Assembly (NCBI GenBank): GCA_902634765.1
Contig: CACPLH010000002.1
Coordinates: 6,582 to 70,581 of the forward strand
Reading direction: 5' to 3'
DNA length: 64,000 bases
From: an uncultured Pelagibacteraceae bacterium
GTDB taxonomy: Bacteria > Pseudomonadota > Alphaproteobacteria > Pelagibacterales > AG-422-B15
The notes beneath the pieces were generated by a model. That model ran no database searches, had not been told where the DNA came from, and was given only the letters and a program-made list of their open reading frames with translations. Positions 9,169 through 31,286 of the stretch are shown here, in pieces. Position numbers and translations under genes: made by a program. How positions within the stretch are numbered: position 1 is the first letter of the stretch; each line of letters opens with the position of its first letter.

Positions 9169-10035
9169 ATGTGTTGTCAGAAAGGAAAAATCTATCTAAA
9201 TTTCTCAATTGAGGAGACCATAGAACCTTGCAAAATTAAGCCAAGCAATGGTTCTTTAGAGTCGCGTGGCTTAAGCGTATACATTGTTGGATTTATGGGG
9301 AATGTTAATTTTTCATTAGAAGTTACAACACGTACTGTGCTTGATGATCTTCCCAAAATTAATGATATTTATGTAACTTTTTTACCAGGGACTGATTACA
9401 AAGATGTGATTAAACAGTCAGTAAATCTTGTTAATTCAGGTTATAATGCAATCCCTCATTTTCCTGCACGATCAATCAAAAATTTAGACATGCTGAAAGA
9501 ATTTGTTTTACAAATAAAAGAGGGTGGAGTTAAGCAGGTTTTAATTATAGGAGGTGATCGAGATATTCTAGGGGACTATCATTGTTCACTTCAATTAATT
9601 GAAACAGGTTTGTTTGACGGACTTAAAATAGGTATTGCAGGACATCCAGAAGGCTCGCCTAACATGGATAACGATACTATTGAGGAAGCAATGAAGTCAA
9701 AAGCACCATTTGCTGATTATATTGTTACTCAATGGACTCAAGATACAGACGCAATAATCGACTATGTCAATCGTATGCCTCTTCCTGTGCACATAGGTGT
9801 AGCAGGACCAGCTTCAATAAAAACATTAGTTAAGTTTGCTGGATTTGTTGGCTTAAAAAACTCACTTAATTTTGCAAAAAAAAATGCAGGCAAAATTTTT
9901 GACTTATTGAACGTTCAGACACCTGATGAGGTCATTCAAGAAGTTAAAAACAATGTAAACAATTTCCACATTTATGCATTTGGTGGAATAAAAAAAACAA
10001 AAGAATGGTTAGAAAAGGAGAACTATTATGTCTAA
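9169..10035 (+). CDS. Methylenetetrahydrofolate reductase family protein (MetF-like)
   Basis: NFSLEVTTRT, HFPARS and GHPEG resemble MTHFR motifs. The start is uncertain: 9169 gives about 288 aa (normal MTHFR length) and the frame is open for 42 codons upstream of the alternative ATG at 9295. Confidence 0.7.
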   Translation: MCCQKGKIYLNFSIEETIEPCKIKPSNGSLESRGLSVYIVGFMGNVNFSLEVTTRTVLDDLPKINDIYVTFLPGTDYKDVIKQSVNLVNSGYNAIPHFPARSIKNLDMLKEFVLQIKEGGVKQVLIIGGDRDILGDYHCSLQLIETGLFDGLKIGIAGHPEGSPNMDNDTIEEAMKSKAPFADYIVTQWTQDTDAIIDYVNRMPLPVHIGVAGPASIKTLVKFAGFVGLKNSLNFAKKNAGKIFDLLNVQTPDEVIQEVKNNVNNFHIYAFGGIKKTKEWLEKENYYV

Positions 10036-11371
10036 AAAAATAGAGCATAACACTACAGTTGATCAAAGCGATAGACATGTTCCTTATAACTTGAGACAAA
10101 GTGGACCAACTGCAGTACAGATGTTAATCTCTACTCGTGTAAGAAAGTCACCCTATTGGCACAAGTCAATTGAGCATGGATGCTGGAGAGCAACTGTCTA
10201 CAACCGTATTTATCACCCGCGTGGATATGTAAAGCCTGAAGATGGTGGTGCAATGGTTGAGTACGAAGCAATCAAGAACCATGTAACAATGTGGAACGTT
10301 GCTGTTGAAAGACAAATTAGAGTAAAAGGACCGGATGCAGAGAAATTTACCGATTATGTAATCACTCGTGATGCAACTAAAATTTCTCCAATGCGAGCAC
10401 GATATGTAATTCTTTGTAATTACAAGGGTGGAGTTTTAAATGATCCAATATTACTTCGAATTTCTGAAGATGAATTTTGGTTCAGTTTATCTGACTCTGA
10501 TATTGGTTTATATTTACAAGGTGTTAATGCTGATAAGCGTTTTAATGTAGAGATTGATGAAATTGATGCTTGTCCCGTGCAGATTCAAGGACCTAAATCT
10601 TTAGCTTTGATGAAAGACCTCATTGGTGATCAAGTTGATCTTGATAATATGCCATTCTATGGATTAGCTGAGGCTACCGTTGGTGGACGAAGCTGTGTAA
10701 TTTCTCAATCAGGTTTCTCAGGAGAAGCTGGTTATGAGATATATCTTAGAGATGCAACAAAGTACGCTGATGATATGTGGGATGCTGTTGTTGAAGCAGG
10801 TAAAAAACATAGTCTTATGGTTATTGCGCCTGCACACCATAGAAGAATTCAGGCTGGAATTCTTTCATGGGGTCAAGATATGGACAACGAACACAATCCG
10901 TTTCAATGTAATTTAGGTTATCAAGTTTCACTTTCTGGAAAAGGTGAGTGGGCTAAAAAAGGTGACTACGTTGGAAAAGAAGCTCTAGAAAAAATGGGAG
11001 CAGATCTTAAAGCTGGAAAATCTCCATATAAACTTCAATTAGTAGGCATGGAAATTGGTGGGAAGCCAATTGAAGAGTACGCGCCTGATTTTTGGCTTGT
11101 ATCTCCAGGCGAAGGTGGAGACCCATGTGGGTTCATTACATCTCCATGGTTCCATCCAGAAAAAGGTGTGAATATTGCAATGGGATATGTTCCCTTTGAT
11201 GGCACTTTAAATGCTAACGGTTTTCCTAAATGGGAAATTGGTAAAAAATTTAAAGTTCATTTGCCTGATATTTATGCTGACACTCCAGGAGAGCCAGTAG
11301 ATGCAGTTACTGTGGAAATTCCATTTACTGAGTCACATAATGCAAATACAAGAGAAGTAGTAAAAGGCTAA
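10028..11371 (+). CDS. GcvT/DmdA-family tetrahydrofolate-dependent aminomethyl/methyl transferase
   Basis: 447 aa. RKSPYW, WNVAVERQIRVKGPDAEKF and SQSGFSGEAGYEIY resemble the GcvT fold. AAGGAG sits 7 nt upstream of the start. Overlaps the metF-like stop by 8 nt. Confidence 0.8.
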   Translation: MSKKIEHNTTVDQSDRHVPYNLRQSGPTAVQMLISTRVRKSPYWHKSIEHGCWRATVYNRIYHPRGYVKPEDGGAMVEYEAIKNHVTMWNVAVERQIRVKGPDAEKFTDYVITRDATKISPMRARYVILCNYKGGVLNDPILLRISEDEFWFSLSDSDIGLYLQGVNADKRFNVEIDEIDACPVQIQGPKSLALMKDLIGDQVDLDNMPFYGLAEATVGGRSCVISQSGFSGEAGYEIYLRDATKYADDMWDAVVEAGKKHSLMVIAPAHHRRIQAGILSWGQDMDNEHNPFQCNLGYQVSLSGKGEWAKKGDYVGKEALEKMGADLKAGKSPYKLQLVGMEIGGKPIEEYAPDFWLVSPGEGGDPCGFITSPWFHPEKGVNIAMGYVPFDGTLNANGFPKWEIGKKFKVHLPDIYADTPGEPVDAVTVEIPFTESHNANTREVVKG

Positions 11372-27663: not shown

Positions 27664-28800
27664 ATGTCAAAAGGAATTATCTATACACCAAGGGTAAGAA
27701 AGTCACCATTTTTTGAGGAAACATTAAAATACGGTGCAACAAATTTTACTACTTATAATCATATGACCATGCCTGTAGGCTATACGACTCCAGAACAAGA
27801 ATATCAGTCTCTTATTAATGATGTCACTCTCTGGGATGTGGCTGCAGAAAGACAAGTGGAAATTGTAGGCGAAGATGCTTCTAAATTTGTTCAGTACATG
27901 ACACCTCGAAATTTATCTACGTTCAAGGATAATTTCTGTCGATATGCATTCATGACTGATGAGAATGGAGGAATTATTAACGATCCATTAATATTAAAAT
28001 TTAATGAAAATAAGTATTGGTTGAGTATTGCAGACTCAGACGCAATTTTATGGTGTAAAGGAGTCGCATTATCTGGAAATTATAAGGTAAGTATTTCAGA
28101 ACCTGAGGCATGTCCATTATCATTACAAGGTCCTCGTTCAAAAGAATTGATGCGAAAAGTAACTAACGATGACCCAAAAATAATGGGATTAAAATATTAT
28201 CAATTTATAGAAGCTAACTTATTTGGTATTGATTTAATTATCGCGCGGAGTGGGTGGAGTAATCAGTTTGGATACGAAATTTATATAACGAGAGAAATAG
28301 ATGGACCTACCTTGTGGAATTCCCTAATGGAAGCTGGTAAAGAGTTCAAAATTGTACCTAGTTGTCCTAATCAAATTGATAGAATTGAAGCGGGCATGAT
28401 ATCTCACCAAGGTGATACATCCCTGGATGAAAATCCTCTTGAGTTGAACTTACCTAAGTTTTATGACTTGGATCAGGAATCAGATTTTGTAGGCAAAGAA
28501 GCTTTAAAAAAAATTAGAGATGAGGGAATAAAAAAACAGTTTACTGGATTTAAAATTTCAGGAAAAAAGATTGGTTATAATATGGCTAGAATTCCTCTTT
28601 ATGATGAGAAATCTGAAAAAAAAGGATTTATTACAAGCTGTATTTATAGCCCAAATTTTGGATGTAATATTGCCTTGGGATACGTAGATATTGATCTAGT
28701 ATCATCAACTGATATTTTTAATATCAACCATGATGGCGAAGAGAGAGATGTTGAGGTTGTTCCTTTGCCATTTAGCTCAAGACTAGAAAAAATGGAATGA
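27664..28800 (+). CDS. DmdA-like GcvT-family demethylase
   Basis: I start it at ATG 27664 (MSKGIIYTPRVRKSPFF). WDVAAERQVEIVGEDA and ARSGWSNQFGYEIYI closely echo the DMSP demethylase DmdA motifs as I remember them. Confidence 0.8.
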   Translation: MSKGIIYTPRVRKSPFFEETLKYGATNFTTYNHMTMPVGYTTPEQEYQSLINDVTLWDVAAERQVEIVGEDASKFVQYMTPRNLSTFKDNFCRYAFMTDENGGIINDPLILKFNENKYWLSIADSDAILWCKGVALSGNYKVSISEPEACPLSLQGPRSKELMRKVTNDDPKIMGLKYYQFIEANLFGIDLIIARSGWSNQFGYEIYITREIDGPTLWNSLMEAGKEFKIVPSCPNQIDRIEAGMISHQGDTSLDENPLELNLPKFYDLDQESDFVGKEALKKIRDEGIKKQFTGFKISGKKIGYNMARIPLYDEKSEKKGFITSCIYSPNFGCNIALGYVDIDLVSSTDIFNINHDGEERDVEVVPLPFSSRLEKME

Positions 28801-29477
28801 CATTTTTAAAAAGTAAATTTCATAAATTTATTTTTATCTTTACTATTCTTATATCTATTTTTTCAGGATGGTTTTTTTCAGAATATATTATTAAACAAAA
28901 AAATGACGAAACAAACTATATCAACGCTAGTTTTAATCTAATAGATCATCATGGCAATGAGGTTTCTAACCATGATTATATAAATTTTAATAAAGTATTT
29001 TTTTTTGGATTTACTCATTGTCCAGATGTTTGTCCAATGGGAATTAGTGTTTTATCAAATGTTATTGACGAATTAAGTGATCTATCAATTAACAAATTTT
29101 TATTTATTAGCGTAGATCCTGATAGGGATACGCCAAAAAGAATGAATAAATACTTATCAAATTTTAATAACGAAATTATTGGTCTTACGGGTGACTATGA
29201 GTCGTTGAAGCCTGTTTGGGAAAACTTCTTTGTCCATGTTAAAAGTGACATGACACAAGACAAGGAGCCCTATTCTAATTTTGATAATATAAAAAAACAA
29301 AACTCACATGACAATCATAATTCAGATAATCATTCGCTTAGTGAAGTGTCAGAAAATAATTATATTGTGCAACACAGTGCGTTTTATTTTATATTTGATC
29401 GTAAAGATAATCTAAAAACAATTTTACCATTTGGATCAAGTTCTGAAGAAATACTAGCTGAATTATCAAATCTATAA
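28797..29477 (+). CDS. SCO1/SenC-family copper chaperone / thiol-disulfide oxidoreductase
   Basis: 226 aa. Has an N-terminal TM anchor, the THCPDVCP CxxxC motif (29019-29033), and a distal His in VQHSAFYF. An ATGA overlap joins it to the upstream gene. Confidence 0.8.
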   Translation: MTFLKSKFHKFIFIFTILISIFSGWFFSEYIIKQKNDETNYINASFNLIDHHGNEVSNHDYINFNKVFFFGFTHCPDVCPMGISVLSNVIDELSDLSINKFLFISVDPDRDTPKRMNKYLSNFNNEIIGLTGDYESLKPVWENFFVHVKSDMTQDKEPYSNFDNIKKQNSHDNHNSDNHSLSEVSENNYIVQHSAFYFIFDRKDNLKTILPFGSSSEEILAELSNL

Positions 29478-29729: not shown

Positions 29730-30602
29730 ATGAAAAGTAATACATCTGACTTTTATATTGTAATAATTCCAATTGTAATAATGATTTGCCTTGCTTGGAC
29801 GTACTTATTTATTTTCTCAAATGAAATGGACATGGACATGAGTTCAATGGACATGAGTTCAATGGATATGAACAATGACATGAGTATGGACTCTCAGGAC
29901 ATGGACATGAGTTCAGTTGATATGAACAATGACATGAATATGGATTCATCAAAAAAATTTTCTTTATTCGCAATGCCAATGGATAGCAACTGGTCTATTA
30001 ATGATTTTATTGTAATGAATCTAATGTGGATAATTATGATGTTTGCAATGATGTTTCCATCATCACTAATGTTCCTTTTTCTTTTCTATTCTATGAGAAG
30101 CAATATGGCTATTGTAAAAAATCCAAAATCAGAAATTGTCTTACTGTCTTTAATGTACTTTTCTATATGGACTTTATTTTCAATTGCAGCTTGTTATCTT
30201 CAATATATTTTTCATAATTATAGTGTAGTAAACATGATGGGAATGTTAACAAGCAACAAGGCTGCCGCAATAACATTAATTGGCGCAGGATTATTTCAGT
30301 TTTCTAGTTTTAAAGATGCTTGTTTAGAAAAATGTAGAAATCCACTTGCATTTATTATGGGCACGAAAATTAGTTCCAATTACGATGTTTTAAAGCTAGG
30401 ACTTTTACACGGCCTGTATTGCCTTGGATGCTGTTGGGCGCTTATGCTCATTTTATTTGTCAACGGTGTTATGAATATGCTCTGGATTGTGATCCTTACA
30501 ATAGCCGTTTTATCTGAAAAAATAATTCCATTTGAGAAACTTACTTCTAGATTTTTTGGCCTAATTCTAGTATTTTGGGGTTCTTATTTAATTTTTATTT
30601 AA
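29730..30602 (+). CDS. DUF2182-like predicted metal-binding integral membrane protein
   Basis: 290 aa polytopic protein. HGLYCLGCCWALM matches the conserved CxGCCW segment I associate with DUF2182. A Met/Asp repeat loop follows TM1. Confidence 0.65.
   Translation: MKSNTSDFYIVIIPIVIMICLAWTYLFIFSNEMDMDMSSMDMSSMDMNNDMSMDSQDMDMSSVDMNNDMNMDSSKKFSLFAMPMDSNWSINDFIVMNLMWIIMMFAMMFPSSLMFLFLFYSMRSNMAIVKNPKSEIVLLSLMYFSIWTLFSIAACYLQYIFHNYSVVNMMGMLTSNKAAAITLIGAGLFQFSSFKDACLEKCRNPLAFIMGTKISSNYDVLKLGLLHGLYCLGCCWALMLILFVNGVMNMLWIVILTIAVLSEKIIPFEKLTSRFFGLILVFWGSYLIFI
29826..29945 (+). repeat. Nested in-frame tandem repeat encoding a Met/Asp-rich loop
   Basis: Consists of 15-nt ATGGACATGAGTTCA units plus two imperfect copies of about 48 nt (ATGGACATGAGTTCAATGGATATGAACAATGACATGAGTATGGAC and ..CAGTTGATATGAACAATGACATGAATATGGAT). 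Encodes MDMDMSSMDMSSMDMNNDMSMDSQDMDMSSVDMNNDMNMD. Confidence 0.85.
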
Positions 30603-30605
30603 CCT

Positions 30606-31286
30606 ATGACCGCAAATCCTTTTAATCTTCATTGGGAAATTAATGGCCACTTTCTATTGAACTGTAATTGTGATGTTTTTTGTAATTGTCCTATGTCCTT
30701 AGGGCGTGCAGTTCCTAATTCACCGAATGGAAAATGTTTTTCCTGGTGGGGAATCATTATTGAAGATGGTTGGGCTGAAGAAAAATGGTCTGGTTTTAAT
30801 CCAATGAAGAGAGAGCAAAAGGGTATTATTGATTTAAGCGGTTTGAACGTTGCAATTTTGCTTGAAGTTCCTGGGCCATTATCTATGGGAGGATGGACAG
30901 CGGGTTTATATTTTGATGAAAAGGCGTCTGATGATGCAGCTGATGCATTATTAAAAATATTTTCAGGTAATGCAGGAGGGCAAACTGGATGGTTTTCATC
31001 TATGATTTCTAATTTCTTGGGAGTTAAGAGAGCATCTATCACTTATAAAGAAACAGAAACTGGTTGGACTTATACAATTCCAGATATCTTAGATGGTAGA
31101 ATTGAAAAAGAGCCAGGTCTACAAAGAGGCGAAGACATCAAGGTTTCCAATCTTAAATATTGGGTTGCCCCCGAGATTATTGTAGGTCGAGGTGGAAAAA
31201 GAAGTAAAATTAAAGACCATGGACGTAATTGGGATTTCACAGGAGGAAGTGCAGAATACTGCGCCGTTGAGTGGTCAGGTCCATAA
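30606..31286 (+). CDS. DUF1326-like Cys-rich protein
   Basis: 226 aa. Five N-terminal cysteines (NCNCDVFCNCP...GKC) fit the family description of about 210 aa with 5 conserved N-terminal Cys. Confidence 0.65.
   Translation: MTANPFNLHWEINGHFLLNCNCDVFCNCPMSLGRAVPNSPNGKCFSWWGIIIEDGWAEEKWSGFNPMKREQKGIIDLSGLNVAILLEVPGPLSMGGWTAGLYFDEKASDDAADALLKIFSGNAGGQTGWFSSMISNFLGVKRASITYKETETGWTYTIPDILDGRIEKEPGLQRGEDIKVSNLKYWVAPEIIVGRGGKRSKIKDHGRNWDFTGGSAEYCAVEWSGP

Follow-up and report, generated by a model that had tools for sequence, protein, structure and literature searches.

What, if anything, does an inner-membrane protein gain from a long run of methionine and aspartate that its gene builds out of small tandem repeats, and what does it mean that the length of this run differs between near-identical strains? 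The question is raised by a stretch of 64,000 nucleotides (here the window) from an uncultured member of the Pelagibacterales, with a genome of 1.2 Mb at 33% G+C that is 78% complete, and more precisely by a gene in it, single copy in that genome, for a 290-residue protein of the Pfam family PF09948 (PpoB2/DUF2182/DmdE-like). The Met/Asp tract of this protein is an expanded, repeat-built form of a Met-rich loop that runs through the whole family between the first two transmembrane helices (TM1 and TM2). That the loop is repeat-built, Met-rich and polymorphic we hold to be close to certain, and from the function of the family, the gene context and the chemistry of methionine it is probably a length-variable Cu(I)-binding arm.

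Translation of 29826-29945 gives MDMDMSSMDMSSMDMNNDMSMDSQDMDMSSVDMNNDMNMD, and re-translation returns the same 14 Met and 11 Asp that an earlier note on this DNA had counted, the other residues of the 40 being 8 Ser, 5 Asn, 1 Gln and 1 Val. The tract is encoded by nested in-frame repeat units of 6, 15 and 54 nt. The smallest of these, ATGGAC, is present 2.5 times at 29826-29840 (Tandem Repeats Finder), the next encodes MDMSS, and the largest is seen as two copies of 47 nt each that are 91% identical and separated by the spacer TCAGGAC, which is in substance the 15-nt unit and the two copies of about 48 nt that the earlier note had described. With Met at a frequency of 2.4% over all open reading frames (ORFs) of the genome, the probability of finding at least 14 Met in 40 residues is 2.9e-13 for any one segment of that length, with about 1e-7 such segments expected genome-wide, and the tract is the top-scoring and most Met-rich 40-residue segment among the 1295 ORFs. 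A minus-strand ORF over the same DNA (29809-29979) was set aside as a by-product of the repeat. Elsewhere in the genome a truncated ORF at the very start of a contig (C33:2-298) contains ...DGMDMFSMDMDMGMDMGMDMGMGEM... and ends in a weakly PilO-like C-terminus (expectation value, E, 0.007, under the cut-off), the contig breaking within its repeat.

Evidence for polymorphism was taken from independent assemblies and from protein clusters. The 290-residue allele and its DNA recur unchanged in three other independent metagenome assemblies (L038, which is Tara ERR594340, L039 and L040), and contig L037 differs from the window by a single clean deletion of 69 nt (15+54) between flanks that are roughly 99% identical. 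In protein searches alleles that differ in loop length share a 214-residue core at 98.6-100% identity: the 45-residue loop of the window compares with one of 22 in P0017 on a near-identical core, P0027 and P0029 have loops of 40 and 22 residues at a core identity of 100%, and loops of 45, 50 and 54 residues are also found on near-identical cores. MDMSS is present once in P0017 and P0027, twice in the window and P0014, three times in P0020 and four times in P0031, and alleles with one to four copies of the 15-nt unit exist at core identities of at least 99%. The 54-nt (18-residue) unit is found naturally in one copy (P0017 and P0029), in two, or in three, as in an allele of 58 residues. The differences among natural alleles correspond precisely to the units of 6, 15 and 54 nt. 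Inside clusters of 90% identity the loop spans 22 to 81 residues, and among near-identical strains it carries between 7 and about 30 Met. The window's own lineage, marked by the residues SSKK, has alleles of 22, 27 and 45 residues, and the one-unit allele is present in more than 10 sequences, one of them on a 63.6-kb NCBI contig. The gene is an in-frame variable-number tandem repeat locus in the sense that copy number varies among near-identical alleles.

Such a pattern of alleles fits replication slippage or unequal recombination, and the origin by slippage or duplication that the earlier note had proposed, together with its guess that loop length would vary between strains, agrees with alleles that differ by whole units and with the clean deletion in L037. 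Its view that the expansion is recent stands for the 15-nt unit, whose two copies are exact, and falls for the 54-nt unit, the duplication of which is common to several species of the genus and is therefore older, while still being polymorphic at one, two or three copies. The note had also raised an assembly artefact, which is ruled out by the identical DNA in the three other assemblies, and collapse by the assembler is unlikely because the units, at 54 nt or less, lie below the k-mer sizes given in two of the contig names (k127 and k141). A phase-variable contingency locus is likewise ruled out, all units being multiples of 3 nt that keep the frame, and all 30 genomic orthologues are open and free of internal stops.

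On which side of the membrane the loop lies was approached by taking the helices of an AlphaFold2 model with the N-terminus inside and counting Lys plus Arg on each side in 70 aligned homologues. The mean is 11.1 inside versus 1.9 outside, with the inside count the higher in 70 of 70. Segments rich in Lys and Arg all fall on one side (the N-terminus, residues 121-135, 192-220 with its CxxxC, and 263-271) with loop 1 opposite, and distant homologues have a strongly basic N-terminus ahead of TM1 (e.g. RRDR). By the positive-inside rule the loop is thus predicted to be periplasmic, the outside location that had first seemed plausible from a single Lys and an acidic loop, and the insertion of a PCuAC domain into the same loop in another lineage points the same way. 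Loop 1 of the reference contains 16 Met, 13 Asp plus Glu and 2 Lys plus Arg, and is modelled as disordered, the predicted local distance difference test score (pLDDT) being below 50 over most of residues 40-83. A MxM/MxxM cluster in a flexible extracytoplasmic segment is what defines the Mets motifs, and by prediction the loop belongs with them, in what is a functional class and not a homology family.

The methionine is not a peculiarity of the window. Taken over 147 distant PF09948 representatives, loop 1 is 25 residues long and 17% Met at the median, and 123 of them have at least three Met in it, usually ending in a MxMPM-type motif. Close homologues retain the Met-rich loop, as the copper idea had supposed: in 58 loops of the Pelagibacterales clade, with 25 distinct lengths from 8 to 69 residues, Met makes up 30.3 +/- 4.3%, set against a random-codon expectation for ATG of 1.9%. 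The rest of these clade loops is mostly Ser (18%), Asp (17%), Asn (13%) and Glu (6%), all other hydrophobic residues coming to 3.6% combined, and successive Met are 2 residues apart in 54% of cases and 3 apart in 20%. Different lineages expanded different Met-bearing units (MD, MDMSS, the 18-residue unit, MGSMQMD, MSMDSMSDES and SM), and that Met content stays steady although the repeats are unrelated speaks for selection on Met and against AT-rich drift. Drift of that kind would favour Ile, Lys, Phe, Tyr and Asn, so that the composition of the clade loops (Ile 1.4%, Phe 0%, Tyr 0.2%, Lys 4%) also counts against it. Those predictions of the earlier note that lent themselves to computation were all borne out, and none of the outcomes that it had named as refuting was encountered.

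It is here that a neutral low-complexity linker has to be considered, a disordered and tolerated segment that slippage has grown from an ATG-GAY seed, the genome being AT-rich, and that serves no metal. Extreme length polymorphism on near-identical cores would be natural for such a linker, as would orthologues whose loop is reduced to 8 residues (KPMGAEAA), the disorder of the loop in the model, and the second MDMG/MDMD repeat in the PilO-like ORF of contig C33. What the linker does not readily give is Met held at 30 +/- 4% over 25 lengths and several unrelated units, the scarcity of the residues that drift would bring, or the Met-richness of the non-repetitive loops in distant homologues, and another lineage has a copper-chaperone domain placed precisely in this loop. 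A neutral linker is on this balance unlikely.

Copper is suggested by four things together, namely the family-wide Met-rich loop, a SCO1 gene in the cluster, a PCuAC gene upstream in a sister genus and the fusion of PCuAC into the loop itself. PCuAC is a periplasmic Cu(I) chaperone. In nine protein clusters a full PCuAC domain (PF04314, E 4.6e-28) lies inside loop 1 of a PF09948 protein and is flanked by MDMDM-type stretches, one such fusion lying on a contig of 1.1 Mb and another being a gammaproteobacterial relative of 44% identity. The fusions thus speak for the predicted position of the loop as well as for its chemistry. In the sister genus (g4) a 151-residue PCuAC gene (PF04314, E 9.4e-20; L012:1028-1483) sits directly before the DUF2182 orthologue, between this and a small Cys-rich gene. 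SCO1, PCuAC and DUF2182 are each present in the same 22 of 24 g4 genomes, the two that have none of the three (G015 and G026) being 93% and 86% complete; as kin are not independent, this co-occurrence is a pattern and not a statistic. No PCuAC was found in the window's own 78%-complete genome or in six genomes of its genus. Expansion of the loop in genus g1 as compensation for a lost PCuAC is not supported, g4 having PCuAC and similar loops of about 48 residues. SCO1 is found in only 1 of 18 genomes of g6 (core Pelagibacter-type, near-complete at 99%), and since most of the core Pelagibacter genomes searched are without it, the SCO1 of the window belongs to the module and not to general housekeeping.

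Outside the loop the protein is a well-conserved member of its family, now named "PpoB2, copper chaperone" and formerly DUF2182/COG5486. It matches PF09948 with 181.1 bits against a cut-off of 28.7, over profile positions 2-186 of 188, and the family motifs MWxxMMxxMMxPS, CxxxC and HGxxCxGCCW are all present. The AlphaFold2 model (mean pLDDT 79.5, predicted TM-score 0.70) has a confident helical core, and its 7 helices leave the N-terminus inside and the C-terminus outside. Across the 70 aligned homologues C198, C202, C231, C234, C235, M108, P110 and W23 are invariant, and H227, M99, M103, M104 and M107 are conserved in at least 90%; the CLEKC segment, being rich in Lys and Arg, would be cytoplasmic. 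Relatives of solved structure were found neither by sequence nor by fold (best Foldseek E 0.79, TM-score about 0.2).

How might a metal travel through such a protein? Thioethers in MxM/MxxM spacing would form several low-affinity Cu(I) sites in the loop, and the Asp carboxylates may draw in cations and help the loop to be exported by the proton motive force. The loop would then collect Cu(I), or exchange it with periplasmic SCO1 and with PCuAC where that is present. Bound metal could be passed to the MPM motif (82-84), on to the methionine ladder of TM2 (M99/M103/M104/M107/M108), and from there to the cluster of H227, C231, C234 and C235 and to C198xxxC202 on the cytoplasmic face, although the direction of travel is not fixed by this scheme. 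The final recipient would be the five-Cys cytoplasmic DUF1326 partner. On such a mechanism repeat copy number would determine how many binding sites the arm has and how far it reaches, with no switching of the protein on or off.

The DUF2182/DUF1326 pair has been named DmdE/DmdF in Ruegeria lacuscaerulensis (EMBO J 2026, PMC12992908), where both proteins were found to be needed for dimethylsulfoniopropionate (DMSP) demethylation in a Roseobacter and the pair was stated to be absent from SAR11/Pelagibacterales. Contrary to that statement, part of the SAR11 order does have a DmdE/DmdF-like pair; among the genomes searched, 30 of 36 in one Pelagibacterales family carry a DUF2182 orthologue, compared with 0 of 24 in its sister family. 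The two systems share both protein families, the order of membrane protein first and DUF1326 second, and a place near a dmdA-type gene, which in the window is a DmdA-like gene that scores below the family cut-off. They differ in that the Roseobacter-type loop is short (e.g. FYHCHPLAVMTMPMSP) whereas that of the window is long and repeat-built, and in that the pair is joined to SCO1 in the window and to PCuAC as well in g4. The same work predicts TM1 of DmdE to be a cleaved signal peptide (PMC12992908). For the window protein a cleaved TM1 is considered unlikely, with W23 invariant, Y25 conserved in at least 90% and a hydrophobic stretch of 23 residues.

Around the gene (Table 1) the pair has a DmdA-like gene on one side and a gene resembling dimethylglycine dehydrogenase on the other. 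The former is three genes upstream of the PF09948 gene, directly upstream of the module, and has a paralogue scoring 235 bits at 10028-11371. The SCO1 gene, two genes upstream of the PF09948 gene, is the only copy found in the genome; its product carries a His-, Asn- and Asp-rich insert (29247-29360; ..SHDNHNSDNHS..) between the conserved core and the distal His, and within the genus SCO1 is 64-98% identical as against 95-100% for DUF1326. Between SCO1 and the PF09948 gene lies one for an 80-residue protein that matches neither a Pfam nor an NCBIfam family; its sequence shows a lipobox-like ..YAC, together with conserved Cys (NC...LLCVxTCxNDVC). DUF1326 begins 3 nt past the PF09948 stop codon, has no signal peptide and, as an alignment shows, has five invariant Cys (C20, C22, C26, C28 and C44). 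The pairing of DUF2182 with DUF1326 holds in five of six unrelated loci (not in L046) and does not hold in genus g2, where the DUF2182 orthologue (L010:1495-2376) stands alone with no DUF1326, SCO1 or dimethylglycine dehydrogenase gene within 1.5 kb and with neighbours that by eye are glutathione-transferase-like and DsbA-like genes. On a Hyphomicrobiales contig (L047:2525-6771) MttB-family, GcvT-family, DUF1326 and DUF2182 genes lie in a row, and this is a third lineage that ties the pair to folate-linked demethylation genes.

Table 1. Features of the PF09948 gene, its repeat-built loop and its neighbours, in window coordinates.
Feature	Position	Strand	Detail
DmdA-like gene of the GcvT family, best of the genome	27604..28800	+	NCBIfam NF009133, 347.6 bits, below the 410-bit cut-off
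SCO1/SenC-type copper chaperone, HCPDVCP	28797..29477	+	Pfam PF02630, E 2.9e-34
Small exported Cys-rich protein, 80 residues	29485..29727	+	same position in genera g1 and g4, 47-89% identity
Gene for 290-residue PF09948 (PpoB2/DUF2182/DmdE-like) inner-membrane protein	29730..30602	+	Pfam E 2.8e-53
Whole TM1-TM2 loop, residues 31-88	29820..29993	+	acidic, Met-rich, disordered, predicted periplasmic
Met/Asp tract	29826..29945	+	residues 33-72 of the 290-residue ORF; 14 Met, 11 Asp
15-nt in-frame unit ATGGACATGAGTTCA (MDMSS), x2.7	29832..29871	+	Tandem Repeats Finder, score 73, 96% matches
54-nt-period unit, copy 1 (MDMSSMDMNNDMSMDSQD)	29847..29893	+	repeat search, family D3
54-nt-period unit, copy 2	29901..29947	+	91% identical to copy 1
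MPM motif, residues 82-84, before TM2	29973..29981	+	MPM retained in most homologues (alignment consensus)
TM2 methionine ladder M99, M103, M104, M107, M108, then P110	30024..30053	+	two overlapping MxxxM
C198-x3-C202 (CLEKC) in Lys/Arg-rich segment	30321..30335	+	invariant
H227-G-L-Y-C231-L-G-C234-C235 cluster, TM5	30408..30434	+	C231, C234 and C235 invariant
DUF1326 (DmdF-like) partner	30606..31286	+	Pfam PF07040, E 1.2e-34

A different use for so much methionine is as a sacrificial buffer, in which periplasmic Met would scavenge oxidants, for example H2O2 from methyl-group oxidation, and be repaired later. DmdF (DUF1326) has peroxidase activity and dmdEF is linked to oxidative-stress protection (PMC12992908), and at two gammaproteobacterial loci a fusion of PF09948 with PCuAC, 418-449 residues long (L049:7001-8302 and L050:7001-8257), has as divergent neighbours DUF1326 and a gene for methionine sulfoxide reductase (PF01625). 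These two loci are syntenic and hence not independent, and the MxM/MxxM spacing, the TM2 ladder and the association with SCO1 and PCuAC are left unexplained by a buffer. The reductases of the MsrA type are moreover cytoplasmic, whereas the loop is predicted to be periplasmic. A buffer would be compatible with copper binding, and as the explanation of the loop it seems very unlikely.

Several observations weigh against the loop being a copper arm. It contains neither His nor Cys, and peptides with Met as their sole ligand have no better than micromolar affinity for Cu(I), whereas copper in the ocean is present at nanomolar levels and under strong chelation. The high polymorphism is also what weak constraint would be expected to give, the 8-residue loop of some orthologues makes the long loop an accessory that core function can do without, and the second MD-type repeat, in an ORF unrelated to this family, suggests a mutational tendency of the genome towards such tracts. 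As to cuproenzymes that might be its clients, neither SBP56/MtoX nor a tyrosinase was found in the window's own 78%-complete genome, the control for the tyrosinase search having matched nowhere. The sole experimental study of DmdE does not settle what the protein does and never mentions copper (PMC12992908). At one Paracoccaceae locus a DUF1326-DUF2182 pair (L042:5374-12807) adjoins cobW, znuA and zinc-uptake-type ABC genes.

This last locus, with its cobW and znuABC-type zinc genes, bears on a further alternative, that the loop serves another metal (Zn(II), Fe or Ag(I)) or that the Cys-rich core is a thiol-disulfide relay, the loop in either case not being specific for copper. Its richness in Asp, a hard ligand, would suit such a metal, and the Cys clusters of the core and of DUF1326 would suit zinc or redox chemistry. 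By established coordination chemistry the thioethers of Met are poor ligands for Zn and Fe, and the zinc context is a single case whereas links to copper chaperones recur, so that a metal other than copper, or a relay, is highly improbable.

How does a Cu(I)-binding arm of variable length compare with systems already described? PpoB2 of Marinomonas mediterranea, the founding member of the family, is genetically required for copper transfer to tyrosinase (PMC2855505), and the window protein is likened to it by family match, both being membrane proteins of the same Pfam family with conserved Met, His and Cys motifs. The window gene differs in its surroundings, a cluster for methyl-group oxidation that includes SCO1 and DUF1326, in a genome where, as said, no tyrosinase was found, and in having a repeat-expanded, length-polymorphic loop. 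For the size of a Met-rich segment CueO is a direct precedent that length matters, the larger Met-rich domain of the Hafnia alvei enzyme recruiting Cu(I) from chelated copper better than that of E. coli (PMC12041951); as the loop is predicted to be, it is a periplasmic Met-rich segment of variable size, but it belongs to a soluble multicopper oxidase and shows no within-species tandem-repeat polymorphism. PcoB requires its disordered His/Met-rich N-terminal domain to handle copper, and this domain, which tolerates changes of sequence and size (PMC12509749), resembles the loop as a poorly conserved, disordered and size-tolerant Met-rich region; PcoB differs as an outer-membrane efflux protein in which His is critical, the window loop having none.

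A more distant comparison is with Ctr1. Its extracellular N-terminus is a disordered MxM/MxxM cluster before a MxxxM helix, with a copy number that varies among species. An extracytoplasmic Met cluster ahead of a MxxxM helix is also the arrangement here, by analogy only and without homology, the fold of Ctr1 being another and its ectodomains also using His.

That Met-rich disordered segments bind copper is already known, and PF09948 carries the copper-chaperone label, and so the basic reading is not new. New are the in-frame copy-number polymorphism, by which the loop of an abundant marine lineage ranges in natural populations from 22 to 81 residues on near-identical cores, the use of differing repeat units per lineage at a constant Met content, and the insertion of PCuAC in the same loop elsewhere together with a separate PCuAC gene that abuts the orthologue of the sister genus. 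Together these findings give DmdE a concrete and testable role in copper handling. A more far-reaching proposal, which we regard as decidedly unlikely in its entirety, is that the DmdE/DmdF-type pair is a conduit for Cu(I) with the repeat loop as its adjustable intake, repeat copy number in SAR11-type bacteria of the oligotrophic ocean tuning capture of Cu(I) from strongly chelated seawater copper or from SCO1 and PCuAC, and the copper serving, by way of DUF1326, the handling of oxidants in the demethylation of DMSP and glycine betaine. If true, such a conduit would supply the missing function of DmdE and would tie the supply of trace copper to marine methyl-group and sulfur cycling.

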